Source: Ginglymostoma cirratum (Eukaryota). Taken from it: a stretch of 64,000 nt of DNA. Every line of letters begins with the position of its first letter. Position 1 is the stretch's first letter. Of this stretch, positions 5,996-61,070 are shown in pieces. The DNA lies in the NCBI GenBank assembly GCA_024137785.1, contig JAHRHZ010000087.1, positions 17,037,205 to 17,101,204 of the forward strand. The letters are read 5' to 3'. Both the position numbers and the translations under genes were made by a program. The notes under the pieces are model-generated. The model was not told where the DNA came from, made no database searches, and saw nothing but the letters and a program-made list of their open reading frames with translations.

Positions 5996-6019
5996 AGCAG
6001 ATTGACTGCCTGTCAGAAA

Positions 6020-7600: not shown

Positions 7601-7604
7601 TGCT

Positions 7605-9459: not shown

Positions 9460-9585
9460 TAAAAAGTGGCAGACTGATGCGAAATTAAAACAGAAAGTGC
9501 TGGAGAAAAGCAACAAGTCTGGCGGCATCTGTGGGGACAGAGACAGTTAATATTTTGAGTCCGATGACTCTTCTTCCGAACTGTG
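9460..9585 (-). mobile_element. PLE terminus fragment related to family B, decayed hammerhead
   Basis: Reverse complement reads CAGTTCGGAAGAAGAGTCATCGGACTCAAAATATTAACT...CAGATGCCGCCAGACTTG. Confidence 0.65.
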
Positions 9586-13671: not shown

Positions 13672-13712
13672 CAATAGACAATAGACAATAGACAATAGAC
13701 AATAGACAATAG
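13672..13712 (-). repeat. (TCTATTG)n heptamer tail of CR1, ~6 units
   Basis: Perfect CAATAGA tandem on the + strand at the element 3' end. Confidence 0.95.
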
Positions 13713-14495: not shown

Positions 14496-15804
14496 ATTTA
14501 CACAATACATATTACACAATACCAAGTCTAGTAGAACATATTCTCTGCTTGGTTCCAGAATGTGTTAACCAAGAAAATATCTTGAAAGCTTTGAAGAAAC
14601 TCATCATTCAGACCATCATTGTCAATTTGTCTTTTTTTCTAGTTTATATAAAGATCAAAATCACCAATATTTTCAACATCTCTTTATCATAAGCAACCAC
14701 TATTTCTTCCCATATATTTCATCCTATATTGTGATTACTGTTAGGCAGGACAAATGACCACTCTTAATTGTGGCTTATTACGCCCAATATTCTTTATCAT
14801 TACGCTAAAAAATTATACATGCTGATTTCCTGTACCAAGGTCACCAAAACTGTTGTGCCAATACCATACACTTTATCTAACTTCTTAACCTTCTAAATTC
14901 ATATACTGTTCACAAGAGAAATTTATAGATATGACCTTGGACTTCAGATGATGGATATAATTTAACTGATCGCATCCTAGAAGCAGACTTAGATACTGGG
15001 GTGGGGAAGAGTCAATTAATCCAGGAGAAAAGCGAGGGGTCGACAGGCCGTCACCTTCACCCACTCTTCCTTCAATTAAGATTAAGTCAGAGAGGGGTAT
15101 ATTTAGCTTGGTCTTCCCTTCAGACAAGAAAGGTCTTTGTGGCCAATTTAGGGCCCCAAATGATACCATTCAATTGTGGCTCGTATTCAATCAATGATAG
15201 TGCTGGGAGTGATGAGGTCAGGCTGTGCCCCACTAAAGGCCCTTTTAGTGACAAGGTAAGTAGATCCTTGCAGTTCCTAGGAGCAGGATTCACATTCTAA
15301 AGGCTCCAGAAACCCTAAAAGCAGGCAATTAAGATTTAATCCCATCAGAGTTTCCAGATATGGCCACAGTGGAGTTGCCACTGGCTTTCTGACCTGTATA
15401 TGGGGCCACTACTATGGCCATAAATATTAAGTTAATATTTCTTCATGTGGTGTTAACCAAGTCCTACGAATCTTATTCCTCATGAGATAGTCAATAGTAA
15501 AATTATATTCAATATGAATAATAGATTTTACAAGTAGCAAATACCCACCATGAAGATACGCTGAAAGTATGGATGCCCTTCTGCCAACCTTTTGCTTTGG
15601 TAAATATGGTAGAATTAAAATTCAAGACCAAAATAATACTTACAGTGTGACTCAAACTTCTCACAATGTTGGCATGCAGTATATTGAAGAAACTTGCATG
15701 AATTGTATATTTCATTTATAATACGGGAAAAATCATATTTAATGCATTAAGTTTCTAGTTCGTGTCCCTTTATTCTTCTGGCACTAATCATATTAAGTAA
15801 GAAA

Positions 15805-15915: not shown

Positions 15916-15922
15916 AATACTG

Positions 15923-16057
15923 AGATAACAAGGTGTAGAGCTGGATGAACACAGCAGGCCAAGCAGCATCAGAGGAGCAGGAAGGTTGACGTTTTGGGCC
16001 TAGACCCTTACACCTTGTTATCTCAGATTCTCCAGCATCTGCAGTACCTACTATCTC
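15923..16057 (+). mobile_element. Family A palindromic mini-element with most of the sense arm missing; 15-bp TSD
   Basis: TGATTATAAATACTG at 15908-15922 and 16058-16072; antisense arm ...GACGTTTTGGGCCTAGACCCTT joined to ACACCTTGTTATCTC plus tail. Confidence 0.85.
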
Positions 16058-16539
16058 TGATTATAAATACTGTTTTTTCATTAGGTAAAAAACAAGCTAT
16101 CCAATGTAGATAATATAAGACAGTTAAAAACCCAAAATTCTAACCCAAAAGCATTCAGAATCGGCTTCCTTATGTTCCACATCACTGTAAGAGCCCTGCC
16201 ACCCATCCAGCCCTCAAGAACTACTTGCAAAAAACCCAAGGGAACCCTATACCCACCAATACTACTGCTAACAGCCTGCAGCATGGCACCAGACCTGGCT
16301 GACAGCCATTATGGCAGTCATAGGGTTCAGTATCCATATCAACCTCCCAATCCCACCTGTGCAGAAGTTGGGGAGACAGCATGACATTCCCAGTACACTC
16401 CTACAAGCACTGTTAAATCAAAATGTAGAATAGTTTAATTATTTATATTTGGACACACTTAAACTGCAATGTTCCAAAAACTTTCCAATTATGAAAGATG
16501 ATGGATACCAGTAAAAAAAATCTATTTAAAATAGAATGT

Positions 16540-22539: not shown

Positions 22540-22765
22540 GAGATAGTAAGAACTGCCGATGCTGGAGTCAGAGATAACACAGTGTGGAGCTGGAGGAGCA
22601 CAGCAGGCCAGGCAGCATCAGAAGAGCAGGGAAGTTGACGTTTCAGGTTGAGACCATTCTTCAGAAAATGAGCTTCTGAAGAAGGGTCCCAAACCGAAAC
22701 ATCAACTTTCCTGCTCATCTGATGCTTCCTGGCCGGCTGTGTCCCTTCAGCTCCACACTTTGTTA
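22540..22765 (-). mobile_element. Complete head-to-head palindromic hammerhead mini-element (family A variant), 15-bp TSD
   Basis: TTGCATCCCAAAAAA at 22525-22539 and 22766-22780; ~95-bp inverted arms meeting at CTTCAGAA...TTCTGAAGAAGGG; ~30-nt tail on the left arm only. Confidence 0.9.
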
Positions 22766-22809
22766 TTGCATCCCAAAAAAACCTCACAGCCCAGGCACAT
22801 GCAGATTTC

Positions 22810-24470
22810 GTCACAGTTATCTCTTAAATCCTGCAGACAGAGCTTGCTCAGGGAAAGCAATCTTGAGATGTTTCTTCAAGCACTCTTTCTGAAGAATAAA
22901 TAACTCAGACAGAAAACAAACCCAGTAAAACATCCAAATACACATATTGGTCCAATTCGTTCTGTATACTTCAGAACAGAACTCCGGTATGACCAGTACA
23001 TTCATTTCCAAGTATTACTTTTTTTTTGCTGATTTTCTTCTCTCTGGGAAGTTTCACCCTAAACTCAACAAGAATGTCAAGGAGGAAGCTTATTCTTAAC
23101 AAGTTTTCCTGCAACTCAATTTGTTCTTCCCTCCAATTGAACCAGAAAAAATCAAATACGTCTCCAAACCAGTCACTGTTCAAAACAGTCTAGTTGAGGT
23201 CAACAGTAAAGCAAGGAGTTATGACCAGTCATGTGATTCACAGGAAGTCTTGTTAAAAAGTAATCTCTGATTTCCTCAGTGAACTTTGAACCGTCTCTTT
23301 TAAATAAACTACCCTACAAAATTTAAAATGATTTTATTTTCCACAATCCTTCAAAAACTCCAAACAATATTACATATAAAATGTCCTTGTAACAATACAG
23401 TCTTGTGTTCGGCTACAGTTACAGAATTGAGGAAGGGTCCAGTTCTGAGGAAGCATCACTGGACCCGAAACGTTAACTCTGATTTCTCTTCACAGATGCT
23501 GCCAGACCTGCTGAACTTTTCCAGCAACTTCTGTTTTTGTTCCTGATTTACAGCACCCACAGTTCTTTTGGTTGTCAAAAGATAAGCATTACTACTGAAG
23601 TTTGGCATAAACTTTTGATAGAAATCACACATCCCCCAAAACTTCATAATTTCTAGCTTAGTTTTCAAGGTAGGGGATTCCACCAAGTCTATATTTTTGT
23701 CTTTCTTGGCAGAAAGAATCATTGTTGAACTTTTTGCCTTAGATAGGTTACCTGTCCTTTAGTAAATCCTTTTTTGACAAGGTTTACTTAAAAAAAAGTC
23801 AGCTGATTCTACTTATACATGTTTTGGTCTTATGGATCCCTACATCCTTGCCAAAGGAATTTCATGGACCATCCTTAATATGTCTTGACAATTTTTGGGA
23901 AGCACCCTTCATCTATTCTTCCTCCACAAGTCCATAAGGAGGTCTTCACTTCCTTATCGGAAACATTTTTACTACAGTTGCATTCTAGAACACCTTCTTG
24001 TCAACATCAATTTGAGCCAATTGTGCTACTCTATTTAAAACAGGCTTAACTCGCTGAGACTCGATAAAAGAAGACTCATTGGATGTTTCCTTCAGAATGT
24101 TCAAAGCCCAAAATAAAATAGCTGATAACCAAAGATCGGGCTGTGGTGTGAATGTGATCTCTGTTTAGCCATTGTTGGGTCACTACACATGAAGGAAATG
24201 TTCCTGAGTCTTTTTCTTTAACTGCTCTATTCTCTTTGACTTGTCTTGACTTTTCTGTAATGACTGGAGAAGCTAGTACATTCACTCTGGCCCAATTATT
24301 CCCAGGAGTAGGTCAAATCTGTCCACAGGCAATCTATGGACAAACTCTACAGTAGTTTCCAGATATTAGGTTATATTCTAGGTGAACCTGATAAAGAGGA
24401 ATATGTTCCCCACCCATACCATTTGCTAAAATATTGGAATTCATTATTCCTTTTCCCAGTCCTTCTGAGG
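22810..24470 (-). mobile_element. Decayed Gmr1-like Gypsy LTR retrotransposon (protease, integrase start, RT/RNaseH linker, putative LTR)
   Basis: NGMGGEHIPLYQVHLEYNLISG and DLLLG (protease end); SPVITEK...FPSCVVT; ILRMVHEIPL...VGIHKTK (integrase zinc region); KFWGMCDFYQKFMPNFS (RT linker). Confidence 0.75.
23428..23572 (+). mobile_element. Family B hammerhead mini-element inserted in the Gypsy element
   Basis: AGTT-CTGAGGA-AGCATCACTGGACCC-GAAACGTT-AACT at 23441-23478, preceded by a partial duplicate TGAGGAAGGGTCC; 3' tail present. Confidence 0.85.
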
Positions 24471-24560
24471 CCCCAAACACAAGTCTTTGTCCAGTACATT
24501 GATGATGTCGGTGCTGCTTCCTGATCTCGTCTGGACTTTGATCAGTCTTATTTCCAATCT

Positions 24561-24880
24561 GGGGCAGCACAGTGGCTCAGTGGTTAAGACTGCTGCCTCA
24601 CAGCACCAGGAACCCAGGTTCGTAACTACCCTCGGGTGACTGTCTGTGTGGAGTTTGCACATTCTGTCCATGTCTGCGTGGGTTTCCTCCGGGTGCTCCG
24701 GTTTCCTCCCCCAGCCCAAAGATTTGCAGGTTCAGCAGATTGGCCATGCTAAATTGCCCATCATGTTTGGGAATGTGTAGATTAGGTGGGTTACAGGGAA
24801 ATGGGTCTGGGTGGGATGCTCTGAGGGTTGGTGTGGACCTGTTGGGCCAAAGGGCCTGTTTCCATTCTATAGGGATTTTA
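24561..24880 (+). mobile_element. HE1-type tRNA-derived V-SINE
   Basis: A box TGGCTCAGTGG, B box GGTTCG, core GTGTGGAGTTTGCACATTCT...GGGTGCTCCGGTTTCCTCCC, tail GGGCCTGTTTCC...TAGGGATT. Confidence 0.92.
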
Positions 24881-25939
24881 TGAATTTCCATCCTTCTCTC
24901 ACTTTCAGCTAGGCCATCTCTGATTCTTCCCTTCTTTTCCTTGACTTCACTTTCTATTTCTGGGGATAGTATGTCCACCAATATCCATTACTAGCCCACT
25001 GACTCCCACAGTTACCTCACACACTGCCTCCTATAAAGATCCCATTCCATTATCCCATTTGTCCATTTCTGTCACATCTGTGCCGACAATGCAACTTCCA
25101 CCAATGTGACTCTGGCACGTCCTCCTTTTCCCTCAACCAAGTATCCCCCATCCTCCACTGTGATTGGACACAGTAGAAGGCCCTATCAATGTATCTGATG
25201 CACTTCTGCCCTCACTCTTTCACCTCCCTCCCAAATAAATCTCCTCTTTATCCTCACTTCCCACTTCACCTGTTTCCCCATTCAAAGGATTATCTTCCTG
25301 CCACTTCCACCATGTCCAGCAGGATACCAACACCAAGCACATCTTTCTCTCCCCTCCACTGTCAGTATTCTGCAGAGACTATTTTCTTGGTGACACTCCG
25401 GTCCACTCCTCCATTACTCCTAAAACTTCTTTACTCCCCCATTGCACCTTCCCATGCATTCACAGAAGGTGTAACACTTGCCCACGCATCTCCTTCCTCC
25501 TCACTATCCAAGGCCCTTCACAACCTTTCAGATGAAGCAGCATTTAACTTGTCCTTATCACAATCTAGCCTACCGTATTTGCTACTCAAAACTCTATCAC
25601 CTTTACACTGCTAAGACTCAATGCAGAATGGTGACTGCTTTGCGGAAGACCTCTGCTCTGTCCATAGGAATGACTCCTCTATTCTAGTTGCTTGTCATTT
25701 CAAAAAAAAATCTTGTTACCTTACTAACATTTCCATTCTTGGTCTGCTACAGTATTTCAATGAAACTCAATGTAAGCTGGAGGAACAAAACCTTATTTTC
25801 CACTTAGGCATTATACAGCCTCCAGTACTCAATATTGAGTTCCACAACTTCAGAGTTTGACCACTGCACTCCATGTTTCTTAGATTCTCCACTTCTCAAA
25901 GCTATGCCTTATTTGTTTCCTGACTTACCACCATCATCA

Positions 25940-26167
25940 GTGGTGGGCGTGTGGAATGCCAGCAGTGGTAGTGGACTCAGATGCTTTAGAGACTTTTAAA
26001 CGACTCTTGGATAGGCACACGGAAGGTAGTAAAATGTAGGGAATGCAGGGTAGATTGACCTTAGTAGGATAATAGATCGGCACAACATCGTGGGCTGAAG
26101 GGCCTGTACTGTGGTGTACTGTTCTATGTTCTATGTTCTATGTTCTATGTTCTATGTTCTATGTTCT
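25940..26167 (+). mobile_element. CR1 3' end with (ATGTTCT)n tail
   Basis: GTGTGGAATGCC...GGGCTGAAGGGCCTGTACTGTG followed by ~6 ATGTTCT units (~26119-26167). Confidence 0.9.
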
Positions 26168-26554
26168 ACCACTGCCTTTGTCTCTTGCTCTGGATTCTCA
26201 ATCATTTCCACTTTCTCCTCTTCCTCCTCTGTCTACAGCATTAAAACTACCACTTCCAGCTCTTTATCTTTCTGAAAAAGAGTAATGATGGAATGAAAAT
26301 ATTAACTCTTTTACTCTCACCAAAAATGCTGCCAGATCTGTTAGTTTCTTCAGCACTTTCAGTTTTTATTGCATAATTAATGAAGCAAGTTTGGCAAGAC
26401 AGAGCAACAGAATACAACAGGTCTCAAGGTGAAAAACCTTAAAAAAAATGATGCCATGTGAAAGTTTCAGCACTTGGTGTCTTTCCTTCTATCCTTCTCT
26501 AATTAACATTACTCCATTTTCATCTGAATAATGTCAACAGTGATGTCTTACTGA

Positions 26555-27500
26555 AGCCTCCAGTTTTGTTATGACTGAGATGGGAGAAGTGCACCTTCTT
26601 TTCTAGTCCTAATACTTTGAGACACAACATAAATTTAAAAGTTTTATTCAGTTTCCGATATGGCCCGACACAGACTTCCCATGTTGTAAACGTAGATCCA
26701 TTGACTGGGTTTCATTAATAAACACAAAAATATACATGTATTGTAAATCAAAACTTACTTCACAACTTACTCTTTAATATATAAAAAAAATGTTTAACGT
26801 ACTCACGCAGTCTTTGTAGAGATTCACTTAAAAAAAGCATTTTTGGCGAATAAGTCTAATTCTTGAAGACAAATAGGATAAGGTTTAACAAGTTCAGTTG
26901 GTTGTTGGACTGATGTTCTGCTACATAACTATGGATGTTGCTGAAAGCATGTGATTGACATTGGGACCTATGCCAACGTTGGTTAGAAAATATTGACAAT
27001 CCGTTTCTCAGGCAAAAACTGAAAGAACTGCGGAGGCTGTAACTCTGAAACAAAAACAGAAATTGCTGGAAAACCTCAGCAGGTCTGGCTGGATCTGTGG
27101 AGAGAAATCAAAGTTAACTTTGTCACTTAACCCGAAATGTCCACTCTGATTTCTCTTCACAGATGCTGCCAGACCTGCTGAGCTTTTCCAAAAACTTCTG
27201 TTTTTGTTTCTTTCTCAAGCAGTTTTTCGATGAGAGCAGCTGAGCAAGGTCTCCCGGTAATTCAGAAAACCTGCCACAAGGATTTTTTTTCCAGAAAAAC
27301 AAGAGAACTGAGTTTGCAAGCTTCTTCCTTTCAGCAGGCTTCTCCTCAACTATGTCAAATGATATCCAAAGCAGAAACCAGAGCCATCTGACTGTCATAA
27401 ACCCATGCAAATGGTCTCCAATAAAAAAGCAGTTATCACAGGACATACAACTATTGAGAACTACCTTGTTAAAAAAGTTCTAATGTACCTGCATTGACTT
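26555..27500 (-). mobile_element. Putative Gypsy-type LTR with PBS-like start
   Basis: Minus strand reads ...GTCATAACA then AAACTGGAGGCTTC (LTR end followed by TGG); composition resembles the other putative LTRs. Confidence 0.45.
27012..27210 (-). mobile_element. Head-to-head palindromic mini-element, family B, hammerhead core largely deleted
   Basis: Inverted arms AAACAGAAATTGCTGGAAAACCTCAGCAGGTCTGG / CCAGACCTGCTGAGCTTTTCCAAAAACTTCTGTTT; TSD-like TTTCTCAGGCA / TTTCTCAAGCA; tail on the left arm only. Confidence 0.85.
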
Positions 27501-28629: not shown

Positions 28630-29838
28630 GAGCCCTAACAAAATTGGAGTCAATGGGAATCATGGAAAAAGTCTCTTTGCTGGTTGGATTCATACTTAGC
28701 ACAAAGGAAGATGGTTGTGGTTATCTCGAGTCCAGGAAATCTCTGTAAGAGCTCCTCAGGTTTGTGCCCTAGGCCCAACCACCTTTAGTTGCTTTATCAA
28801 TGGCCTTCCCTCATTCGGATGTTCAGAAGTGGAAATGATTGCACAATAATCAGCATCATTCATGACTCTTCAGATATTGAAGCAGTCCCTGCCAAAATGC
28901 AACCACAATAGAAATTGCTGGAAAAACTCAGCAGGTCTGGCAGCATCTGTAGAGAGAAAGCAGGGTTAACATTTTGGGTTTGGTCACCCTTCTTCTGAAC
29001 TATGTCGAAATACAACAAGGCCTGGACAATATCCCAAATGGACAATGTCCAGACTTGGGCTGATAAATGGCAAGTAACATTCATATCACACATATGCTAG
29101 GCAACAATAATTTCCAATAACAGACAATCTAATCATTGCACCTTTACATTCAATAGTGTTTCTATCATTGTATCCCACTCTACCACATCCTGATGGTTAC
29201 CATTGACCAGAAATTGAATTGGACTCACCATAAAAATACAATGGAGACAGGAGCAGGTCAGAGGCTATGGATACTGCAACAAGTAACTCATCTTCTAACC
29301 CCCTAAAGCCTGTCTACCATCAACAAGGCTCAAGTCAGGAGTGCGATGGAATACTCCCTATCTACATGAAGAGTTCAGCCCTAACAACACTCAAACATCT
29401 CAAGAAACCCAGCTGGAAAAAAGTAGCCCCCTTGATTGGCACCACATCCACAAACATCACTCCCTCTACCGTGAACATTCAGTACCAGCAGCACGTACCA
29501 TCAATTAGATGCACTACAGAAATTCAGCCAGGATCCTGAGATGGTACCTTCCAACTCAAGGCCAGCACAATCTAGAAGGACAAGGGCAGCAAATACATGG
29601 AGACACCAACACCTGCAATTTTCCCTCCAAGCCACTGACCATCCTGACTTGGAAATGTATTGCCATTGCTTCTGTGTTGCTGGGTCAAAATCATGGAATT
29701 TCCTCCCTAACGGCATTGTGTATCTACCCTTGGCAACAGTTCAAGAAGGCATCTCACCACCACCTTCTCAAGGGGAATTAGGGATGGGCAATAAATCCCA
29801 ACCAGCGATGCCCACATTCCACAAGTAAATAAAAAAAT
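28630..29838 (+). mobile_element. CR1/L2-group LINE, degenerate RT 3' part and tail
   Basis: APQVCALGPTTFSCFINGLP (cf. VPQGSVLGPT.F.CFINDLP), WADKWQVTF; tail GGGATGGGCAATAAA...CCAGCGATGCCCACATTCC plus A-run. Confidence 0.85.
28905..29000 (-). mobile_element. Family B PLE-terminus mini-element nested in the LINE
   Basis: Reverse complement AGTTCAGAAGAAGGGTGACCAAACCCAAAATGTTAACC...CAGATGCTGCCAGACCTGCTGAG. Confidence 0.8.
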
Positions 29839-29899: not shown

Positions 29900-30755
29900 T
29901 TGAGCAAAAACCATGGCTTTTTATGTTTCTGTATTTTTGGTTTTGGACTGAAATAGGAAAATAATTGTTTTAAAAACCAAGGATAGCTGAAGGATTACTA
30001 TATGTTCTGAAAGCGGGTAACAGAACACTCATAGCAAGTATTATTTATACTGCTGCTGGTTCAAACAGTAGTAGGTTTGCAGACAACTGTAGCTAAGGTC
30101 TGTGAACAAATGGAGATTTAGCCAGCAAAAAGTACCTGATTGGTCATTGGCCTAGTGACCAGTTATCGATGACAAGGGCCTTCAGCCTGCCAACAACTAT
30201 GCGATTGTCTGTCAGATAACTGAACAGCTTGGCACTCTGAACAAGATAATGAGAAGCCATTAGATCTCTACCTGTTCTCTGGGGTAAAATGCACATTAAA
30301 CCTGAAGAAAACCAATTTATTCTTCCTTCAGCAGATGCTGTAAGCTGTGACTTTTTCTTAATAAAGCAGAAACAATTTATAATTATGAGCCAGTCACCCT
30401 GCGTCTCCTGCTGACCAATGAAAGCATCCAGAGAAGGAATATAGAAAAACCCTCTGTCCATAACACTCAAGTTTTTCTCCCGCTGTCTGTGTCTGTTTGT
30501 GAGCATGTGTGAGGGAAATCAAAAGGGTTAGCTTTTCTATGCTGTCAGTTCATAATTGTTTACCTGTATCTATTTACTTGTAATAGGTAGTAATACTTGT
30601 TAAGTACAGAAATCTGGTCTATACTTTCTATTAACCTGCATCTGAAAATCAGGCAAATTGAGAATTTCTGCAATTTTTAAAAAATCTTTAACTTTTATTA
30701 CAACTCCAGGAATAATGGGGCTGATTTCCAGCACATTACTTTGGTGAGACAGAGC
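29900..30755 (+). mobile_element. Putative solo LTR
   Basis: Non-coding; layout resembles the putative LTRs at 22810, 34190 and 44050; no paired copy or TSD established. Confidence 0.35.
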
Positions 30756-30840: not shown

Positions 30841-31074
30841 TCATAGAATCACAGAATCCCTACAGTGTAGAAACAGGCCCTTCGGCCCAACAAGTCCACA
30901 CTGACCTTCAGAGCATCCCGCCCAGATCCAGCCCCCTATAACCCACCTAATCTACACTATGGGCAATTTAGCATGGCCAATCCACCTAGCCTGTGCGTCT
31001 TTGGACTGTCGGAGGAAACTGGAGCACCTGGAGGAAACCCAAACAGACACGAGGAGAAAGTGCAAACTCCACAC
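30841..31074 (-). mobile_element. HE1-type SINE, 5'-truncated
   Basis: Reverse complement of the HE1 core and tail (GAATCCCTACAGTGTAGAAACAGGCCC...GTGCAAACTCCACAC). Confidence 0.9.
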
Positions 31075-31249
31075 ATTTTGAAATGTACAAAACATGGTAG
31101 TCAATTTGCAAATGGCAAACCCCCACAAACAGTATTGTGATAAAGACTAGATCATCTGTTTTTTGTGACATAGATTGAAAGGTAAATATTGGCCAGGATG
31201 CCAAAGAGAGTTCCACGTTTCTTCTTCAAAATAGTATCATGGAATCTGC

Positions 31250-33499: not shown

Positions 33500-33797
33500 A
33501 CAGAAATCACAGAAACCCTGTCGTGTGGAAGCAGGCCATTCAGCCCATTGAGTGTACACCAACTCTCTGAAGAGCAACCCACCCAGACTCACCTCCCGTC
33601 CTATCCCTGCATTTCCTATGGCCAATACCACCTAACCTGCACATCTTTGGACCGTGGGAGAAAACCAAAGCACCCAGAGGAGATCCACACAGGCACAGGG
33701 AGAATGTGTAAACGCCACACAAACAGTTACCCAAGGCTAGAATTGAACCTGGCTCCCGAGCCCTGTGAGACAGCAGTGCTAACCACTAAGCCACCCT
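33500..33797 (-). mobile_element. HE1-type SINE
   Basis: Reverse complement of HE1 ending GCAGTGCTAACCACTAAGCCACCC. Confidence 0.9.
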
Positions 33798-34189
33798 GAA
33801 CAGGCAAATATGAAAGTATGATACACGTTCCCATCTTCACCCAATCATCCACATTTCCAGCAAAGGTTACTAGAACTTAGTCAGATACCAAGAATTTTTT
33901 TTTTCCTTCCTAACCTTAGGAAATTGAAGCTAACTGTAGCATCACCTGCATATTGAAATTGGAATCTATATTTTTTTGCTGGTGGAAAAGTTTTTCCTCA
34001 AGCGTAGGCAGGAAGATACAAACTCATCATCAGCACAGTCCACAGATCCACCAGCAGACTCAGAGATCCAGACAGAACCTAAAAACAAAAATGGAACAAC
34101 AACAAGTACCACAGCAACAAGTGACATGGGAATGGCACTCCCTGGTGAAGAAGCATCAACTCGGTGAATAGCCAATGACAATGCACATT

Positions 34190-36100
34190 AAGAAAACAGC
34201 ATGGTTTAAGGATTAAGCATGCAATGTATATGTGCAGGCTAATGAGAACAGTTAATGCATGAGATGAGTCATGTTTATATTGTGTAATTTTTTCTGCATA
34301 TGTCTAGGAGTTTTAAAAGATGATTTGAATTTTAACTAGTAGAGCAACATGTTGATCATTTATATTTGCTTACTTGGAATTAGAATTTACTTATTTGTAA
34401 GGAGTAGATATTCTTGTCTAGTGTTTAAATCTGATCAGTGTTTTTGGTTACCTTGATTCCATCAGAGAGATAAATCAAGGACTTTGCACATTTGGATGAA
34501 ATCATTAACCATTGCCATGACTTTGGGAGTTGTAGGTCTTGAAAATCAATGCACTTTCCCAAATGGATTGAAACAATAGACTAGGGGCTCATCTGGGATC
34601 ATTTTGAAGCAGGCACATTGAGAATTTGGGAATGGTATTAATAAGTGATAACGACAGAGAAAGCAGGTTCATTTCTGAAAATAAGAAACTGAAAATTACT
34701 ATCCTTCAGGTGACAGAATTGTCCTTGACAGTTTTAAGTGAACTTGTAAAAAGCCAGATAATTGATTTGGCATGTAGGTTGGGTGGCTTGGCCTACTAAA
34801 GCTAAAATAACAAATATAATTGAAGCACCAACGTAGCACTTGGGTTTAGCAGAAATAAAAGAGTGACCAGGTATTCCAAATACTGAAAAACCGGAATGAG
34901 GTTATGGTTGAAGTAGCTTATGCATAAGCAAATTGAAGCAACTTGAAATTTTAAAGAAAGATAAATTTTCACAGGGAAGGAAAAGACAAAGAAATGTAAT
35001 GATAAAGATGGGAAATGGGAATGAGAAAACTAGAATTAGAATTGCAGAGGGAAATAGGAGAGAAAGGTATAGATTTTAAGCTAAAAATGTTGCAGTTAAA
35101 ATAGGAGATACCAGATGCTGATGCTTTGACATGGGGAATCCAAGAAATAATCTAAAAACTATTAGCAGCGGCATGGTGGTTCAGTAGCTAACACTGCTGC
35201 CTCACTGCACCAAGCAACCAGGTTCAATTCCAACTTTGGGCAACTGTCTGTGTGGAGTTTGCACATTCTCCCTGTGTCTGTGTAGGTTTCTTCCAAGTGT
35301 TCCAGTTTCCTTCCACAGTCCAAAGATGTGCAGGTTACATGGATTGGCCATGCTAAATTGCCTATAGTGTCCAGGGATGTGTAGATTAGCCTTTGGAGGG
35401 GTGGGAGTGTGAGTCTGGATGGGATGCTCTTTGGAAAGTCAGTGTTGGGTTGAATGGCCTGTTTCCACAAGGTAGGGCTTCTATTCATTCTAAAAATTTT
35501 GTTTTAAGTTTGTGCAAAAAGCCCTGCCAAAATTCAAGAAATGGAAGGTGGAGGCATTCTTTAAGTATTTTGAGAAAATAGCAAGATGATTGAATTGACC
35601 AAAGGGAATCTAGACATTGCCCATGCATAGTAAGCAGACAGGTCAAACACAGAAAAGTATCTTGGGATTATGATACTGTTAAAAAAAAAACAGGTATTGG
35701 CTATGTATGAGTTACTGCCTGAGGCATATGGGCAAAGATCTCAGAATTTAAGGAAACAGTCTAGGCAAACCTATACAATAGTCGCCTGGGGCACGGTGAC
35801 CCTCAGGTTAAACCACCACCAGTTTTCTCTCTCTCTCTTTCATGAGAGTAAAGCTTTATGGTCCGGTAGCACTATGGTGACCTTAAAAAAGACTTAGAAC
35901 TTTATTTTATTTCAGCCCAGCATGAGTCCCAAGGGATGCCTATTGCTGATACTGGGTAAGTTGCTGCCAAAGGGTGGTGGACGGGGATCCACACTTCTAT
36001 TAATCCCAAATGTCACATGACCTTTCCCAAAAGGCACTTGATTGCAATTATGTCTTTCAAAGGACTACCTTGCCTCTTCAAAGAACTCTACAAAGTTTAG
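34190..36100 (+). mobile_element. Decayed Gmr1-like Gypsy element: putative LTR, tRNA-Pro PBS and SCAN-like gag
   Basis: TAGGGGCTCATCTGGGAT (34582-34599) matches the tRNA-Pro PBS TGGGGGCTCGTCCGGGAT at 15/18; gag ALPKFKKWKVEAFFKYFEKIA and KKQVLAMYELLPEAYGQRSQNLRK. Confidence 0.8.
35164..35490 (+). mobile_element. HE1-type SINE inserted in Gypsy gag
   Basis: A box, B box GGTTCAATTCC, V-core and HE1 tail. Confidence 0.9.
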
Positions 36101-37159: not shown

Positions 37160-37795
37160 ATTTTTATTCTTTAATCATTCACAGGATGAGGATATCACTG
37201 GCAGGCAGCATTTATTGCCCATCCCTAATTGCCCAGAGGGCAGTTAAGAATCAACCACATTGCTGTGTGTCTGGAGTCACATGTAGGCCAGACCAGTAAG
37301 GATGGCAGTTTCCTTTCCTAAAGGACATTAGTGAACCAGATAGGTTTCTCCCAATAATCGGCAATGGATTTATGGTCATCAGGGGTGGCACAGTGGTTCA
37401 GTGGTTAGCACAGCTACCTCACAGCACCAGGGACCTGGGTTCAATTCCAACCTTGGGCAACTGTCTGTGTAGAGTTTGCACATTCTCCCCATGTCTGCGT
37501 TGGTTTGCTCCAGTTTCCTCCCACAGTCCAAAGATGTGCAGGCTAGATGGATTGGCTATGCTATAGTGCCCAGGGATGTGTGGGTTAGACATGGGGAATG
37601 GGCCCAGGTGGGATGCTCTTTGGAGAGGTGGTGGTGACTCGTTGGGCCAAATGGCCTGTTTCCATACTAAAGGGATTCTATGATTAGACTCTTAAGTCTA
37701 GATATTCATTGATTTGGGATTTGAACCTGCATCCCCAGAACATTATCTGGGTCTCTGGATTAATAATCCACTGATAATACCACTAGGCCATCAGC
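37160..37795 (-). mobile_element. tRNA-derived SINE with LINE-shared tail, split by HE1
   Basis: Matches 43500-43850, 48003-48375 and 59015-59350 (ATTTATTGCCCATCCCTAATTGCCC...TAATACCACTAGGCCATC). Confidence 0.85.
37382..37684 (+). mobile_element. HE1-type SINE
   Basis: GGGGTGGCACAGTGGTTCAGTGGTTAGCAC...GGGTTCAATTCC...GGGATTCTATGAT. Confidence 0.92.
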
Positions 37796-42450: not shown

Positions 42451-42980
42451 GCGATCACATACACCATTGCTCGCCAGTTCATTATTTTTCATCCTCTGCA
42501 ACAGAACATCAGGATATCCCCTTGGTCAAAATCCAGAAATAAAAGACACCACTTTAAAAAACCATAATAACTTTATCCAACAATACTTCTTTTAATACAT
42601 ACAAAACTGAACTATTCATCCTTATGCATAGAATATTATAGGGTTCTGAGTGATGTGAGCTTTGGGAGATTTATTTGGCAAGGCTAATCTCCATGTTGGG
42701 AGTGAGTTGTTCTAGGAATGACGTATGGCAAGATGGGGCCAGAATTGATTGTGATGATTGTCAAAGAGCATGGGGTAAATAGTTAATGAGGCAAGTTTGA
42801 ACAGTTAGGGCGAGAATGCTTGCTAGGCCTTACAACAGAAATCCTCCAAAAGATTTAACAGAACTCAATCTTAGCCAAAGAAACTAAGTTCCAGCACATC
42901 TTGTCTGTCATGTGAGTGACTGTCTCTGGTCTATTCCTCTTAAGCAGTGTTAATCTAGTGGCTACAACATGCCTAGTGCA

Positions 42981-43018
42981 AGTTCTGAGGAAGGGTCATC
43001 GGACCCGAAACGTTAACT
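42981..43018 (+). ncRNA. Minimal type I hammerhead ribozyme motif, best-preserved family B copy
   Basis: AGTT|CTGAGGA|A|GGGTC-ATCG-GACCC|GAAA|CG|TT|AACT: 4-bp stem I, perfect 5-bp stem II, palindromic AACGTT in place of stem III. Confidence 0.7.
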
Positions 43019-43076
43019 CTTGTTTTTTTCCTTCAGGTGCTGCCAGACCTGCTGAGCTTTTCCAGCAACTTTGTTT
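42981..43076 (+). mobile_element. Family B mini-element, single arm
   Basis: Matches 23441-23540; TSD-like ATGCCTAGTGCAAG (42969-42982) / ATGACTAGGGCAAG (43077-43090), 12/14. Confidence 0.85.
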
Positions 43077-43499
43077 ATGACTAGGGCAAGGCTACTGAAT
43101 TTCACTGGGGGAAACTGAAGATGGTCTTGCAGGATGTTGTCATGCAGCTTTAAGGATTTACAGGCCTAACTGCCGACTGCAACACCACAGCATCTGAAGT
43201 AGCAGTGTAGGCTGGCTAGTTGAGAAACACCAGATGAAACAATGGCTGCATAGCAGGGTTCAGAATACTGTCCTCAAAAGAGAACAGTCATTTCTTTAAA
43301 CATTGAGTCACTGCCACAGCTCTGTACAGGTACCAGTCCACAGAAGCACAGATTAATGGAGTGTGAAGTGAAAGTGAACATTTAAAAATTTAAATAGAAA
43401 CAGAACATTTGAACACTTTCTTATATCCACCTTCAGCTTCCTGTGCAGTTATGTCACTTTAAATCCTACTATTTTAATTTGTCATTTAACAATGGTGAA

Positions 43500-43850
43500 T
43501 TTTTTTTTCCTTTTATTCATTCAGGAGGAAGGCATCGCTGGCCAGGTAGCATTTATTGCCCAGAGGGCAGTTAAGAATCAACCACATTCCTGTGGGTCTG
43601 GAGTCACATGTAGGCCAGACCAGGCACGGACAGCAGATTTCCTTCCCGAAAGGACATTAGTGAACCAGACAGGTTTTTCCCAACAATTGGCATTGGATTC
43701 ATAGTCATTATTAGACTCTTAAGTCCAGATATTAATTGAATTCAAATTCCACTGTCTGTCATGGTGGGATTTGAACCTGGGTCCCCAGAACATTATCTAG
43801 GTTGCTGCGTTAACAGTCCAGTGATAATACCACTAGGCCATCGCCTTCTC
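43500..43850 (-). mobile_element. tRNA-derived SINE with LINE-shared tail
   Basis: Minus head GGCGATGGCCTAGTGGTATTATCACTGG...GGTTCAAATCCC; same family as 37160, 48003 and 59015. Confidence 0.88.
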
Positions 43851-48002: not shown

Positions 48003-48375
48003 GGGGAGGCAATGGTGCTGTGGTAATGTCAGGCGACTAGTAATCCAGAACCCAAGACTAATGCTGTGGGGATCGGAGTTTAAATTTCACCATGGCAAAT
48101 GGTGAATCTTGAACTCACTAAAAATCTGCTATGAAAACTGACCCTAATACTAATTATGTAATCATTGTCAATTCTTGTAAGATTCCATCTGGTTAACTAA
48201 TGTCCTTTCAGGAAAGAAATCTGCCATCTTTACTAGGCCAGCGTCTGATTCCAGATCCACAGCAATGTAGTTGATCCTTAAATGCCCTGTGAAATAGCCA
48301 AGCAGATCAAGAAGCAATGAGGGATGGGCAATACTTACTGGCCGAGCCAGCGATGCCCACATGACACAAACAAAT
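48003..48375 (+). mobile_element. tRNA-derived SINE with LINE-shared tail
   Basis: GGGGAGGCAATGGTGCTGTGGTAATGTC...GGGATGGGCAATA...GCCAGCGATGCCCACAT. Confidence 0.85.
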
Positions 48376-49481
48376 ATAAGTACTTAAAAGATGTTTTCTG
48401 AAATTGTGGATTGTGCTTGATACAGTAAATCTTGCGGCAATTGATAAAGGATAAACGTCTACTCTTTTTAGATGTAATAGATTTAAATCTTTCGGAAAAA
48501 CAAATGTTTAATTCTAAATCCTCTCTGAAGGTAGTAACTTATGTGCCTGAAATCAGCAGCCATTAAAAGTGCATAAATTCATGATGGAGTAGGCTTAGGT
48601 TTCAAATACAAATAATGTATCTCTCAACCATCTCTCAAGCAGCATGGCAGAACTTAAACTACCTCATCCTTTCCATGTCTTTCCTATCAATTCAATTCAT
48701 AACTTTGTTATTATTTTTCTATCAAGTTATTTACAGGAGAGTTTAAGCACGAACCTCAGGGGAGCAGGATGGAAACTAAGTCTCGCAGCAAGATTTGTGG
48801 ATTCATTAAACCATTAAGAGACTTTGTAAAATTTTAATTGCTTGTTTTTGTTGCAATAATGTAATACTTCTTTTAATAGTATAGAATCGCAACATGTGAT
48901 ACCTTCTCACTTATTTGCAGCCTGCCCAGTATCCAAAGAAATTCTGATGGATTGAGAAAAGGAGGGGAAGAGGAACAAGGAGGACTTGGATATGATGTAC
49001 GCTGACCTAAACTTCCTCTCCAGTCCACTGGTAAAATATTTTTACACAAATTTCAGCAGGAAATGTTAGAGCATTGAGTTTTACTTTACTCTCTCTGTGC
49101 TTTAGGCTTGCCTACTAATCACCATGAAGATGCAGCTCTCTCCGATATTTAATGGTTCAACTATCTTTACTGCCATCCAAGGCAAACGTACCCCGTCAAA
49201 CTTATTGTCTGCTTAAAATCTTAACTAAATAATACTTCAGAACATTATTGGAACTCTGTCAATTTTACAAGCTAAAGACTGAGTCTTGTAGTTATATCAG
49301 AGATAATAGGAACTGCAGATGCTGGAGAATCCGAGATAACAAGGTGTAGAGCTGGATGAACACAGTAGGCCAAGCAGCATCATAGGAGCAGGAAAGCTTG
49401 ACGTTTTGGGCCTCGACCCTTCATCAGAAAATCAGATTTTCTGATGAATGGTCTAGGCCCGAAACGTCAAGCTTTCCTGCT

Positions 49482-49881
49482 NNNNNNNNNNNNNNNNNNN
49501 NNNNNNNNNNNNNNNNNNNNNNNNNNNNNNNNNNNNNNNNNNNNNNNNNNNNNNNNNNNNNNNNNNNNNNNNNNNNNNNNNNNNNNNNNNNNNNNNNNNN
49601 NNNNNNNNNNNNNNNNNNNNNNNNNNNNNNNNNNNNNNNNNNNNNNNNNNNNNNNNNNNNNNNNNNNNNNNNNNNNNNNNNNNNNNNNNNNNNNNNNNNN
49701 NNNNNNNNNNNNNNNNNNNNNNNNNNNNNNNNNNNNNNNNNNNNNNNNNNNNNNNNNNNNNNNNNNNNNNNNNNNNNNNNNNNNNNNNNNNNNNNNNNNN
49801 NNNNNNNNNNNNNNNNNNNNNNNNNNNNNNNNNNNNNNNNNNNNNNNNNNNNNNNNNNNNNNNNNNNNNNNNNNNNNNNNN
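49482..49881. other. Assembly gap (400 N)
   Basis: Run of N. Confidence 1.
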
Positions 49882-49898
49882 ACCCTTCATCAGAAAAT

Positions 49899-49926
49899 CT
49901 GATGAAGGGTCTAGGCCCGAAACGTC
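49899..49926 (+). ncRNA. Minimal hammerhead ribozyme motif, intact family A core
   Basis: CTGATGA|A|GGGTCTAGGCCC|GAAA|CG|TC: canonical core, GUC cleavage triplet, ACGT palindrome; stem I weak in this copy. Confidence 0.65.
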
Positions 49927-50289
49927 AAGCTTTCCTGCTCCTATGAGGCTGCTTGGCTTGCTGTGTTCATCCAGCTCTACACCTTGTTATCTTGTAGTTA
50001 TGTGCCCTTTTTTCCAGGAGTTTGCAAATCAGCAAAGTTATCTCAGGATAGACTATACTTGCGTGTATCTTATAGCAGAATGCCTTTTTAAGTTTTCCTA
50101 GATTAAGAATTCTAGGAACTGTTAGCCGAACGGTGGTTTATGAGGATTTAAGCATGAGATTACAATGTTGTTATAATTACTCCTGAACATTTATTGTAAG
50201 AATCAATTCTAAATTACATTATGGAATTGAATACTCTATCATTGAATATCAACACTAGTAATAATATGACTATTCAATTTAAAATGTGG

Positions 50290-53560: not shown

Positions 53561-54939
53561 GATGATGAGCAATATGAAGGTGGGGTTCTCATCTCCAGAC
53601 CAGCCACATTTATTGCTGCCTGATATGTCTGAAAGTTCAGCTGGTGACTCATGCAGGAAGTAGGAAACAAAATGCTCCAGCCTGATCCCACTACCTCCAC
53701 CAGTAAATCCTCTACCCTTGACATAAAAATAGTCCTTCAATTAGCAAGATAGTGAGTGCAAATTGATTCTGTCCTGCATTGTCATTGTTAATAAAGCAAC
53801 CGAAAAGACAAGTTGGCATTAAGGGTGCAATAATTGGCATTAATTAGAAAGATAGGGTGAAGCTAAAAATCTAAGCATCATTAAAAAATGTGTTTGTACA
53901 ACATAACATGACGTACATATGCTTGGTGAATTGCAATAGCTTTCTTTCACATTTCCAATAAGTTCAACCTCATACATCATTTGTAGTTTCAGCAAAGGCA
54001 TAGGCAAGATGCTCAGATCCCTTAACACACTGCCAAAATGCTTTTGGCCTGTGTCTTCTGGATTTTGGAGCCCCTGAGGATCCCACCAAAGACTGCTCTA
54101 CCTGTACCTCTGCAGAGGATCTCACGCATCAAGAGATGAAGCAGCATTTCAAGTATTGGATGAAGTTGAGGGTTGCAAAGTGTGGAAAGTGGGAGCACTT
54201 TGAGCTTCTACTTATTTTTCATCACCATCCCTCTATCAACACATCATGACTACCATTTTGTCGAAGATGATCTTGATTTACAGCTGTGATATGTAAGGCC
54301 ATGGATGAGAAATTATCTAAGACAGCTGAAACCCCCTACAGTCCTGTGGTCTTGGCCTGCATAGATTCTTTTGACAACTCTGCATGAAATTCTGCCAAGG
54401 TGACAACCACCACCAATTGTCACAAATGTAATCCATTAATATTAAAGTTGGGCTTCTCAATCCCCTATGCTATGGTGGATAATGTGTATGATATTTCAGT
54501 CAGCATCTTGTAATATTGCTCTTGTATCTCTTTCATTCTCCTTCTCAAAAATGATCAATATCTGTTCGTGGTTACCTATGAGTTTGGCTCACAATGTAAA
54601 AATAATCATCAGACAAAGTAAAATGCAAATATTGGTGTTGGTGCACTGTTATACATTTTGGTGCACACTCAAAAGGGATGTGTGTTTAGGAGTCATCGTT
54701 ATCCATGCCCAGAGACTGTTACTCTAATAAGTCCGGGCCCTGGAAGGGCAAAGAAGCATGAATTAGTTGGGGTAGACTTCTGAGTTTATTGTGTCAAAAC
54801 TAAAGGCTGTTAAAATTTTATTGGATGCAAGGAATGAAGTGATGGTGTATACTTGACAAAACAGAGGGATGGAGAGATATTTGTCCATCACAGGATGTTG
54901 TTGAACCAACTATTGTAGCCATATTTCCTGATCCATTTC

Positions 54940-55237
54940 AAAGAATCCCTACAGTGTGGAAACAGGCCCTCCAGCCCAACAAGTCCACGCCGAACCACAG
55001 AGCATCCCACCCAGACCCATCCCCCTATAATCCACCTAATCTACACATCCCTGAACAATACAGGCAATTTAGCACTACCAATCCACCTAAACTGCACATC
55101 TTTGGACTGTGGGAGGAAACCGGAGTACCCGGAGGAAACCCACACAGACACAGGGAGAATATGCAAAATCCCAAGGCTGGAATCAAACCTGGGTCCCTGG
55201 CACTGTGAGGCAGCAGTGCTAACCACTGTACCACCCA
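54940..55237 (-). mobile_element. HE1-type SINE
   Basis: Reverse complement of near full-length HE1. Confidence 0.92.
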
Positions 55238-56049: not shown

Positions 56050-56670
56050 GGCATAGGAAGTAGGCTATTCAGTCTATCAACTGATCCACAATTCAATGAG
56101 ATTATGGCTGATCTGATAATCCTCAAATCCACATTCCTGCCTTTTCTCCATAAACCTTGATTTACATAATGATTAAAAAATTGTCTATATGAGCTTTGAT
56201 TACATTAAATGACCCTACCAAATTAGCTCACCACGGTAAAGAATTCCACAAAATGACTACCATCTGAAAGAAGAAATTTCTTCTCTTCTCTCTCTTAAAT
56301 GCGTAACCTTATACTCTGAGATCATGCCTTCTGGTCCTAGACTCTCCTACAAGAGGAAACAACTTTTCCCCATCTACCCAGTCAAGTTTCCCCAGAGTCT
56401 TGTAAATTTCAATAATGCCACATCTCATTCTTCTAAACTCCAATGAGCACAGGTCCAACCTACTCATAAGACAATCCCTCCATACTAGGTATCAGCCTGA
56501 TAAACCTTCTCTGGACTGCATCCAATTCCAGTATATCTTTTCTGAGACAGAGGCTCAGAACTGCTCACAGTTTTCCAGATGTGGTCTGACTAGTGCTTTG
56601 TACAGTTTTAGCAAGACTTCCCTACTTTTATATCCCTCTACCTTTCAAATAAAGGCCAATATTCTTGAAA
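56050..56670 (-). mobile_element. CR1 3' fragment
   Basis: Colinear with 13710-14330 (antisense frame QNCSQFSRCGLTSALYS; CR1 3' UTR). Confidence 0.85.
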
Positions 56671-57446
56671 TGCTTACAAACTATCCACTGGAAAAATGTT
56701 GTATATTATATATTAAACTCAGAGATTTACACCAGAAACTTGTAATTTTGGCCAAATCCAGACATGTAATTGCTATGGTAGAAAGTTTGATCATAAGAAA
56801 TAGGAGTAGAAGTAGGCCGTTCTGCCGCCTATGCCTACGCCATCATTCAATTGGATCATGGCTAATCCGACATTCCTCACCTCCACTTTCCTGCCCTTTC
56901 CCCATAATTTTTGATTCCCCTACTGCTCGAGAATCTATCTATCTCATCCTTAAATAACCACAAGGACTCTGACCCCAGGCTTGGGAATTCTGCTCTCTGT
57001 GATAAGGAGTTCCAAAGACTCAAAACCTCCTGACAGAAGAAATTCCTTCTCTTCTCAGTTTTAAATTGGTGCCCCTTTATTCTGAGACTATGCCCTCCAG
57101 TCCGAGATTCTCCCACGAGAGGTAACATCCTCTCAGCAATTACTTTATCAAGCCCCTTAAGAAATCCTATATGTTTCAATGAAATCACCTCTCATTCTTC
57201 TAAACTTCATCAAGTATAGTCCCAATCTGTTTATCTTTTGCTCATAAGACTATCCCTCCATATCCGGGATAATCCTAGTGAACCTCCTCCTAACCACCTC
57301 CAGTAAAATGATATGTTTCCTTAAATAAGGAGACCAAACTGCTCACTATACTCCAGCTTTGATCTCACCAGCACTTTGTACAGTTGCAGTAAGACTTCAC
57401 TACTCCTATACTACAACACCCTTGAAATAAGGGCCAGCATTCAATC

Positions 57447-57657
57447 CAGAAATAGTAAGAACTGCCAATGCTGGAGTCAGAGATAACACAGTGTGGAGCT
57501 GGAGGAACACAGCAGGCCAGGCAACATCAGAGGAGCAGAAAAGCTGATGTTTCAGGTGGGGACCCTGAAGAAGGGACCCAATCCAAAACGTCAGCTTTCC
57601 TGCTCCTCTGATGCTGCCTGGCCTGCTGTGTTCCTCCAGCTCCACATTGTGTTATCC
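57447..57657 (-). mobile_element. Head-to-head palindromic hammerhead mini-element (same variant as 22540) nested in CR1
   Basis: Inverted arms; core CTGAAGAAGGGACCCAATCCAAAACGTC; TSD-like CCAGCATTCAAT / CCAGTATTCCAT; tail on the left arm only. Confidence 0.88.
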
Positions 57658-59014: not shown

Positions 59015-59350
59015 TTTTATTTATGGGATGTGGGTGTCATTGACTAGGCCAGCATTTATTGCCCATCCCTAATTACCCAGAGGCTAGTCAAGAATCAACC
59101 ACTTTACTGGACTCACAGGTAGGCCAGGTAAGAATGGCAGTTTCATTCCCTAAAGGATATTAATGAGCCAGATGGGTTTTTCCGACAATTGACAATAGAT
59201 TCATGATCATCATTAGACTCTTAATTTCAGATACTTATTGAACTCAAATTCTACCATCTATTATGGTAGGATTCGAACCCTGGGTCCCAGATCATTACCC
59301 AGGTCTCCAGATTAACAGCTGAGTGATAATACCACTGGCCATTGCCTCCT
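59015..59350 (-). mobile_element. tRNA-derived SINE with LINE-shared tail, nested in CR1
   Basis: Same family as 43500; B box GGTTCGAATCC on the minus strand. Confidence 0.88.
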
Positions 59351-60748: not shown

Positions 60749-61070
60749 TGGGGCGGCACAAGTTGTTCAGTGGTTAGCACTGCTGCCTCACAGCGCAGGT
60801 GACCCGAGCTCAATTCCAGCCTCGGGCGACTGTCTGTGTGGAGCTTGCATATTCTCCCTGTGTCTGTGCGGGTTTCCTCTGGTTTCCTCTCACAGTCCAA
60901 AAGTGCGCACATTAGGTGCTAAATTGCCTATAGTGTCCAGGGACATGCAGGCTAGGTCAATTAGCCATGGGAAATGCTGGGTTATGGGAATATGATGGGG
61001 GTGTGAGTTTGATTGGGAGGCTGCTTGGAATGTCATGTGGACTTGATGGGCTGAATTGGATTCTATGATT
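60749..61070 (+). mobile_element. HE1-type SINE nested in CR1 ORF1
   Basis: GGGCGGCAC...TCAGTGGTTAGCACTGCTGCCTCACAGCGC...GATTCTATGATTC. Confidence 0.9.

Follow-up and report, generated by a model that had tools for sequence, protein, structure and literature searches.

A minimal hammerhead motif of Ginglymostoma cirratum as the 5′-head of a short insertion, probably derived from a Penelope-like retrotransposon

A complete minimal hammerhead motif in the genome of Ginglymostoma cirratum raises the question whether it is a ribozyme that works, and is kept, where it lies, or the remnant of a mobile element that brought it there. The motif is located at 42981-43018 on the plus strand of a stretch of 64,000 nucleotides (contig JAHRHZ010000087.1 of assembly GCA_024137785.1, positions 17,037,205 to 17,101,204), which was analyzed as a whole and is called the window here, and it had been pointed out in an earlier note made from the letters alone. 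The explanation that we consider quite probable is that it belongs to a solo piece of the terminal repeat (pLTR) of a Neptune-type Penelope-like retrotransposon (PLE), inserted as a 96-bp unit and decaying neutrally, as the best-preserved of 13 copies. According to this explanation, the minimal type I hammerhead would sit in the pLTR of the parent element, whose GIY-YIG endonuclease and reverse transcriptase (RT) would have inserted 42981-43076, giving a 12-bp target-site duplication. The uncleaved RNA would have been the substrate of this insertion, in which both sides of the cut are retained, and the copy would have been decaying neutrally ever since.

The hammerhead motif and the unit it heads

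Within the motif, a stem I arm, CUGAGGA, a single A, a 5-bp hairpin, GAAA, CGUU, and the complementary arm follow one another (Table 1). A strict descriptor of minimal hammerheads (min-HHRs; both boxes perfect, stems I and II of at least 4 bp, a palindromic or absent loop 3, and UH) yielded this one site on both strands of the window, as against two matches in 600 dinucleotide shuffles. Together with a family pattern that gave two matches in the window and none in 100 shuffles, this rules out a chance motif, and the identification as a minimal type I hammerhead of the PLE kind, as proposed in the earlier note, is confirmed in every part and far beyond chance. The AACGUU palindrome that had been suggested to replace stem III exists in its full 6 nt, but only part of it can be used. 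In an active hammerhead core, A14 and U17 have to be unpaired; since these correspond to 43009 and 43014, only the central ACGU (43010-43013) can act as stem III. A search with the hammerhead models of Rfam, likewise suggested in the note, gave no match, neither at the gathering threshold for the whole window nor at E ≤ 10 for 42700-43300, which is expected for a motif without stem III. Measured against a canonical type I hammerhead, the motif thus stays below the Rfam threshold, its stem I has 4 bp, and stem III is absent.

The min-HHRs described from PLEs (Cervera and De la Pena, 2014, PMC4209133) share with the motif the type I arrangement, a short stem I, CUGANGA followed by an extra base, G10.1-C11.1, GAAA, palindromic positions 15.2/16.2 without loop 3, and NUH, and they are also mostly single dispersed copies related to truncated PLEs that form covarying consensus families. 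Judged by these sequence features, 42981-43018 is a member of this known class. The extra A, regarded as notable before, is already part of the published consensus, as an extra base is present in 54 and an A in 30 of the 56 motifs, and CGUU follows GAAA in 15 of the 56 (counted from Fig. S3 of PMC4209133). The present motif differs in that no cartilaginous fish is among the 40 species of that figure and in that its 5-bp stem II is at the short end.

The hammerhead forms the 5′-head of a 96-bp insertion (42981-43076, plus strand). The flanking repeats are identical at 10 of 12 positions, or at 12 of 14 if the 2-nt microhomology is included (versus 43077-43090), a score reached by only 5 of 1500 random positions. 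The insertion is shared by a close relative, organism A, whose flanks differ by approximately 4%; in a contig of this relative, a G>T change at 43085 removes one of the two mismatches of the duplication, which supports a true target-site duplication. Among nine other insertions tested, three had perfect duplications of 11-15 bp and one a duplication of 10/11, whereas nothing convincing was found at 5 of all 10 insertions tested. The existence of target-site duplications around such short pieces suggests that units of hammerhead plus tail were inserted as such. The copy at 42981-43076 stops at a short 3′-end and does not have the optional tail of approximately 35 bp that is present in the copies at 4030, 23568, and 27014.

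Table 1. Positions of the hammerhead, its inserted unit, related copies and PLE remnants in the window (tail, optional 3′-extension; family A and family B as described in the text).
Feature	Position	Strand	Remark
Left target-site duplication	42969-42980	+	12 bp; 2 nt microhomology into the element, true 5′-end 42981-42983
Stem I, 5′-arm	42981-42984	+	4 nt; most frequent 5′-end within the repeat family as well (biggest piles of 5′ loose ends at 42981/42982)
Catalytic core C3-A9, CUGAGGA	42985-42991	+	
Extra A between A9 and G10.1	42992	+	
Stem II hairpin	arms 42993-42997/43002-43006	+	5 Watson-Crick pairs, 4-nt loop, closing pair G10.1-C11.1
GAAA (G12-A13-A14-A15.1)	43007-43010	+	
CGUU (C15.2-G16.2-U16.1-U17)	43011-43014	+	predicted scissile bond after U43014
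Self-complementary ACGU, stem III substitute	43010-43013	+	
Stem I, 3′-arm	43015-43018	+	4 bp only
Pyrimidine tract ending in CAG	43019-43036	+	12/13 pyrimidines; similar to a 3′ splice acceptor; predicted pairing with the catalytic core
Conserved 3′-block of the PLE terminal repeat	43037-43076	+	hairpin ~43044-43073
Right target-site duplication	43077-43088	+	12 bp
Older family-B solo copy	9481-9582	-	stem II intact, A-U at pair 2; core broken at four positions
Family-B copy with tail	23441-23568	+	core intact, stem II broken
Family-B solo copy	28901-29001	-	core broken
Head-to-head pair of 5′-truncated family-B copies	27014-27211	both	tail (longer 3′-end) on one arm only; outside 11-bp duplication, 10/11
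Family A	1-88, 4337-4433, 15920-16070, 22571-22766, 49333-49481, 49882-49992, 57480-57656		
Decayed Neptune-type PLE	4030-6012	-	RT and GIY-YIG; ends in the same family-B unit
RT frame of this PLE	5152-6012	-	286 aa
GIY-YIG region of this PLE	within 4563-5216	-	
3′-UTR of this PLE, family-A interruption	~4327-4435	-	
TATA-like box of this PLE	4188-4196	-	
Family-B hammerhead of this PLE	4128-4165	-	broken; tail to ~4030
Second, older PLE remnant	24883-26370	+	aligned part 24883-25855; family-B hammerhead at 26268-26307, degenerate, pair 2 of stem II A-U

Related copies, parent element and abundance

Eight pieces of the repeat family to which the 42981 copy belongs (family B) were found in the 64 kb, namely at 42981, 23441, 26268, and 27130 on the plus strand and at 4165, 29001, 9582, and 27121 on the minus strand, which corresponds to one piece per 8 kb; a related family A is represented by eleven pieces. 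Head-to-head inverted pairs are present at 27121/27130, 22666/22674, 49429/49439, and 57556/57565, and two alternative 3′-ends approximately 35 bp apart occur among the copies. Ahead of the 23441 copy, the 5′-half of the hammerhead is doubled in tandem (23415-23441, plus strand), giving an alternative long hairpin.

Family A is a second minimal hammerhead repeat of the PLE type; its triplet is GUC, and its stem II contains a G-U pair. Most of its pieces form head-to-head pairs, in which the arms likewise begin a few bases ahead of the core, and perfect duplications of 11-15 bp flank three of its insertions. At 49899, boxes and stem II are perfect and stem I is truncated. A gap of 400 N (49482-49881) is bordered on both sides by near-identical head-to-head family-A junctions and is possibly an assembly artefact at an inverted repeat. 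One family-A unit (4327-4446 including its perfect 11-bp duplication) is inserted in the 3′-UTR of a family-B PLE remnant, which shows that family A was active after that family-B element had inserted. Additionally, the window contains a SINE-like family of about 300 bp with at least seven copies (24557-24886, 30844-31075, 33504-33798, 35168-35492, 37378-37685, 54937-55236, and 60749-60963), another repeat family (37161-37379, 43501-43849, 48007-48291, and 59026-59350), 7-bp tandem arrays at 13671-13712 and 26120-26168, and the fragments 6026-6400, 10970-11440, 12218-12420, 13814-14452, and 56091-57442, which we take to resemble the 3′-regions of CR1/L2-type LINEs.

A candidate for the type of parent element is the decayed PLE that ends in a family-B unit. 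Its RT frame is 49% identical to protein P0001 (E 7.5e-71), which carries the Pfam domains RT, HTH_animal, and GIY-YIG, and in the Atlas this frame was assigned to the same families as P0001 (score 0.96). The frame at 4563-5216 matched the endonuclease region of P0001 with 35% over 113 aa (E 2e-18). Taken alone, the decayed frames of the window gave weak Pfam results (RVT_1 with E 0.007-0.08, no GIY-YIG). The degenerate hammerhead of the second remnant is located about 400 bp past the last aligned PLE sequence. A third decayed remnant (1910-3364, plus strand) comprises RT and endonuclease region, matches the element at 4606-5939 with 69%, and has no hammerhead end. A CX4CxxC linker is present in the remnants at ~2930 and ~25470 and in P0001, with its third cysteine lost in the 4563-5216 frame.

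Linkers of the form CX2-5CxxC are reported to mark Neptune and Nematis PLEs (PMC8557442), and head-to-head inverted copies and an optional tail of 30-40 bp are given as signatures of PLEs (PMC8557442; PMC3846280). The Neptune-type signs found in the window are RT followed by a C-terminal GIY-YIG, the CX2-5CxxC linker, inverted 5′-truncated copies, the optional tail, and target-site duplications. This is in line with the Neptune-clade EN+ PLEs (Arkhipova, 2006, as summarised in Craig et al., 2021, PMC8557442), for which C-terminal GIY-YIG, linker, 5′-truncated and inverted copies, tail, and pLTR hammerhead are described. In contrast to these, the window contains decayed remnants only and no intact full-length element, no microsatellite target was seen at the 42981-43076 insertion, and the assignment does not separate Neptune from Nematis by a tree. 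A location in the terminal repeat, as in PLE min-HHRs, is found for the sibling hammerhead at 4128-4165 (minus strand), the 42981 copy itself being solo.

For an estimate of abundance, contigs of four sequencing runs were aligned to 42720-43340 (28,545, 24,028, 7,329, and 990 contigs, respectively). In the two runs of organism A, the summed contig depth was 0.4-6.6 million over the repeat, as compared to 8-11 in the unique flank; this depth is no copy number. Even after division by 31, to allow for the overlap of contigs, the number of copies would lie between thousands and hundreds of thousands, which fits the density in the window. Abundance looks far above the 4,000-9,000 motifs reported for coelacanth and Xenopus (PMC4209133). 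A run guessed to be RNA had contigs over the repeat only, with the unique flanks uncovered. Searches of public collections gave two matches in metagenome contigs of other organisms, L001:350-432 and L002:401-436, both with paired stem II, extra A, and CGUU, and none in viral contigs or in prokaryote genomes; three viral matches to a pattern of TATA plus core were dropped as they had no convincing stem II. The L002 hammerhead lies within a head-to-head inverted repeat. No description of family B in cartilaginous fish was found in the freely available papers searched; the supplements of Li et al. (2026) may include the family.

The largest piles of 5′ loose ends were located at 42981-42982, with 757, 694, 234, and 37 contigs at 42981 in the four runs. 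Agreement of the sequences beyond was low (0.35-0.45), corresponding to mostly unrelated flanks with a trace of PLE upstream sequence. Such a pile also collects copies that extend further upstream, and on its own it is no proof of a sharp 5′-end. Among the joints listed, 9 of 15 were opposite-strand joints at 42981-42990.

The best surviving alternative to a solo pLTR piece, although an unlikely one, is that the unit of about 100 nt is a non-autonomous element (a non-LTR retrozyme or SINE-like), transcribed from head-to-tail arrays or by host read-through, processed by dimeric hammerheads, and served by PLE proteins in trans. Tail-to-head joints exist, 8 of the 12 listed joining the tail to 42978-42982, and the solo copies carry target-site duplications of their own. 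Tandem pLTR-derived retrozymes have been reported in the one chondrichthyan sampled (Li et al., 2026, bioRxiv 10.64898/2026.07.22.740005), and non-LTR retrozymes as reported (Cervera and De la Pena, 2020, PMC7229834; Li et al., 2026) are also non-coding, with a type I hammerhead, a pLTR origin, and dispersed monomers. However, the tail-to-head joints have a depth of 12-39, i.e., that of a single locus, and no tandem array of the family-B unit is present in the 64-kb window. Whereas the reported retrozymes form tandem arrays with a hammerhead in each unit, the 42981 copy is solo and bounded at stem I instead of the cut site, tandem joints being rare and located elsewhere in the family. Monomers defined by cleavage would moreover begin at 43015, yet the part of the hammerhead 5′ of the cut is complete in six of the eight family-B copies of the window, the other two are truncated inside the hammerhead at a head-to-head junction, and there is no pile at 43015 among the top loose-end piles listed.

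Covariation, decay and activity at the locus

Covariation was assessed in an alignment of 15 hammerheads, 13 from the window and two from unrelated metagenome contigs. Stem II is 83% paired in this alignment, and its pair 2 is G-C in 10 and A-U in 3 of the 15 sequences. The covariation score was 0.248 as compared to 0.170 ± 0.024 after shuffling (1 of 500 shuffles) and 0.01-0.11 for slid controls, values that are indicative only, the sequences being related. Stem II covariation across copies, on which the earlier note had made the reading of the structure depend, is thus present in these 15 rows. The compensatory change GAGTC/GACTC that had been noticed in the copy at 9460-9585 is real as far as stem II is concerned (minus strand, 9545-9582), but the core of this copy is not intact, with one mismatch in CUGANGA, one in GAAA, and two in CGU. 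The two window copies with A-U are also the most diverged ones, with 29-30 of 42-43 positions of the 3′-block identical as compared to 35-38 in the others, and their cores are broken, from which it follows that the pair change separates subfamilies. As read from these sequences, the change records selection on active source elements and not on the 42981 locus, so that the former conclusion of selection on the structure holds for the source retroelements but does not extend to the copies in the window.

Signs of decay are consistent with this distinction in that the CpG at C11.1-G12 is retained in 6 and that at C15.2-G16.2 in 8 of the 13 copies, the losses being mostly transitions. The two hammerhead variants listed among the aligned contigs, at 43007 and 43011, are both of the CpG type, and short contigs favor near-exact matches. 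Only the 42981 copy out of 13 combines perfect boxes, a full stem II, and a 4-bp stem I. Having been picked as the best of 13, it is no evidence of function, and one intact copy in 13 is what is expected from neutral decay of a huge family.

For this reason among others, it is very unlikely that the 42981 copy is a live ribozyme, kept by selection, that cuts a host or read-through transcript after 43014 with its ACGU paired to that of another copy in cis or in trans and with the help of protein. Its hammerhead has no mutation in core or stems, though its 3′-part differs from its siblings, and together with the insertion shared with the approximately 4% diverged relative this leaves some, if little, room for preservation by selection. 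Stem II has a pair probability of 0.98-1.0 in every context folded, stem I reaches 0.5-0.7 in the isolated 38-mer, very many potential trans partners exist, and GUU is reported as a cleavable triplet (PMC3138052) that is common in PLE hammerheads (PMC4209133). Against this, stem I probability drops to ≤0.19 by the time transcription has added 8 nt and is 0.0 for RNAs extending to 43033-43076. From 43033 on, the pyrimidine tract is predicted to pair with CUGAGGAA, and the probability of an unpaired core is 0.01-0.04 in seven of the eight folds that reach 43036 or beyond; the eighth (42981-43120) gave 0.51, with stem I at 0.05. Other copies sequester the core less (core unpaired 0.11-0.83 in seven copies), and the strong sequestration predicted here may be particular to the 42981 copy or its subfamily. 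Folds of PLE-terminal and other copies gave no sign of an extended, bulged stem I, which had been considered for the full element.

Partners for a dimer are also remote, as the nearest hammerheads on the same strand lie at distances of 6.5 kb (family A) and 19.5 kb (family B), and overlapping inactive palindromes (-3.4 to -6.2 kcal/mol) are more stable than the active 4-bp intermolecular ACGU helix (-1.7 kcal/mol). U17 sites, furthermore, cleave more slowly than C17 sites. For the published min-HHRs, no cleavage of monomers and low cleavage of dimers was found (PMC4209133); dimer cleavage of hammerheads is also ascribed to Lunse et al. (RNA Biol), as cited in PMC6765202, and no RNA-seq ends were reported at the site of the Anolis carolinensis Poseidon element (PAc) (Frangieh et al., 2024, PMC11167929). 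While the cleavage site after GUU at 43014 is predicted here as in the earlier note, activity is doubtful, both for want of a tandem partner and in view of the predicted sequestration of the core by its 3′-neighbor. As, in addition, no promoter-like box is located upstream, the ribozyme at 42981-43018 is probably inert in place.

A host gene at the locus was searched for with Pfam in 172 of the 355 unmasked open frames of at least 48 aa, namely those starting at 28-60 kb, and a single marginal match, 12.6 kb away, exceeded the cut-off. This match, EPTP (EAR repeat) at 30253-30411 (plus strand), is just above the cut-off (E 2.5e-4), has no clear splice sites, and is possibly due to chance. Elsewhere in the window, a crude scan points to a candidate exon (15124-15255, plus strand) whose reading frame is open and whose acceptor and donor sites score strongly. 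Least probable of the readings, and very improbable, is an exapted splice acceptor with UUAAC (43013-43017) as branch-like motif, the pyrimidine tract, CAG at 43034-43036, and an exon from 43037, to which the hammerhead would be a bystander or splicing competitor: the branch-like motif straddles the predicted cut, and 12 of 13 pyrimidines precede the CAG, followed by G where >90% of the contig depth has A, yet the tract is largely a trait of the family or subfamily that indels in contigs convert to the common variant, and no host gene is established among the frames scanned. The T-rich tract was therefore dropped as a sign of selection for splicing, the common variant in the contigs largely explaining it. 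Branch-point-like and pyrimidine-tract-CAG motifs are present downstream of the cut (43013-43037) and again in the tail of longer copies (~4050-4075, minus strand), and could represent ends of a PLE intron or a source of exonization.

Possible origin of the 5′-end and possible role of cleavage

For the solo pLTR pieces, the position of the 5′-end calls for an explanation of its own. There is about an even chance that transcription from the PLE promoter starts at the sharp 5′-end, with a TATA-like box at -31/-29 and an Inr-like +1, and that the solo copies are run-off cDNAs of the 5′-end of the uncleaved transcript. Positions 42981-42984 would then be the putative, Inr-like +1 of the parent PLE transcript. 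Reverse transcription would start internally, approximately 95-135 nt into the uncleaved transcript, and run to its 5′-end, and the run-off cDNAs would leave the TATA box behind. Both family-B copies that end a PLE indeed carry a TATA-like box 31-29 nt before stem I begins (29 nt in that at 26268); in four solo copies, no such box lies within 45 nt. By chance, a 7-nt slot would hold a box of this kind with a probability of approximately 0.0045; for the second copy, a looser pattern was adopted once its sequence was known. In the 4165 copy, the +1 base lies within TCAGTT, which we take to be initiator-like, and the L001 metagenome hammerhead has a similar TATA-like box at -35. Alternatively, reverse transcriptase may tend to stop at the closing helix of the ribozyme.

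A TATA-Inr pair has been reported in the pLTR of a rotifer PLE (PMC3846280). Drosophila Penelope, by contrast, is described as having a TATA-less internal promoter, with the hammerhead further downstream (PMC4209133; PMC2377424), so the TATA/Inr arrangement is not universal. No paper stating the start-site point for these elements was found in the literature, repeat databases being outside the scope of the search. Internal initiation has been described for PAc, where two internal sites that match the tail serve as starts of reverse transcription and a template shortened at its 5′-end gives a shorter product (PMC11167929). According to the same source, the unprocessed RNA is the substrate of insertion, and the hammerhead cleaves only with protein and is dispensable for insertion. 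PAc shares with the present family a hammerhead upstream of two 3′-ends (short end and tail) and DNA copies that keep both sides of the cut site. It differs in belonging to another clade and in that its ORF starts at stem II, whereas the frame that follows the first ATG here (family state at 43037) is no more than a short one, and a 5′-boundary at a TATA/Inr-like site is not discussed there.

A more far-reaching proposal, which we regard as tentative and on balance somewhat doubtful, is that the hammerhead constitutes the 5′-end of the capped PLE transcript and that promoter-less run-off inserts result from initiation 95-135 nt downstream. Cleavage would cut off a capped leader of 34 nt and withdraw the cleaved RNA from use as a template; the ribozyme would in this way brake the element, and pairing of the core with its 3′-neighbor would hold this brake off. 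If this is true, a family of SINE scale would have been made without a SINE promoter, and start site, initiation sites, and covariation could be mapped in vivo from its very numerous dated copies.

The single locus at 42981-43076 matters little as such. The family to which it belongs extends the minimal hammerheads of PLEs to a lineage absent from the 2014 survey, in which it is very abundant. If the 5′-boundary is the transcription start, these fossil inserts would test the internal-initiation model of PLE transposition in vivo, and they would also bear on the question what the hammerhead does in PLEs.
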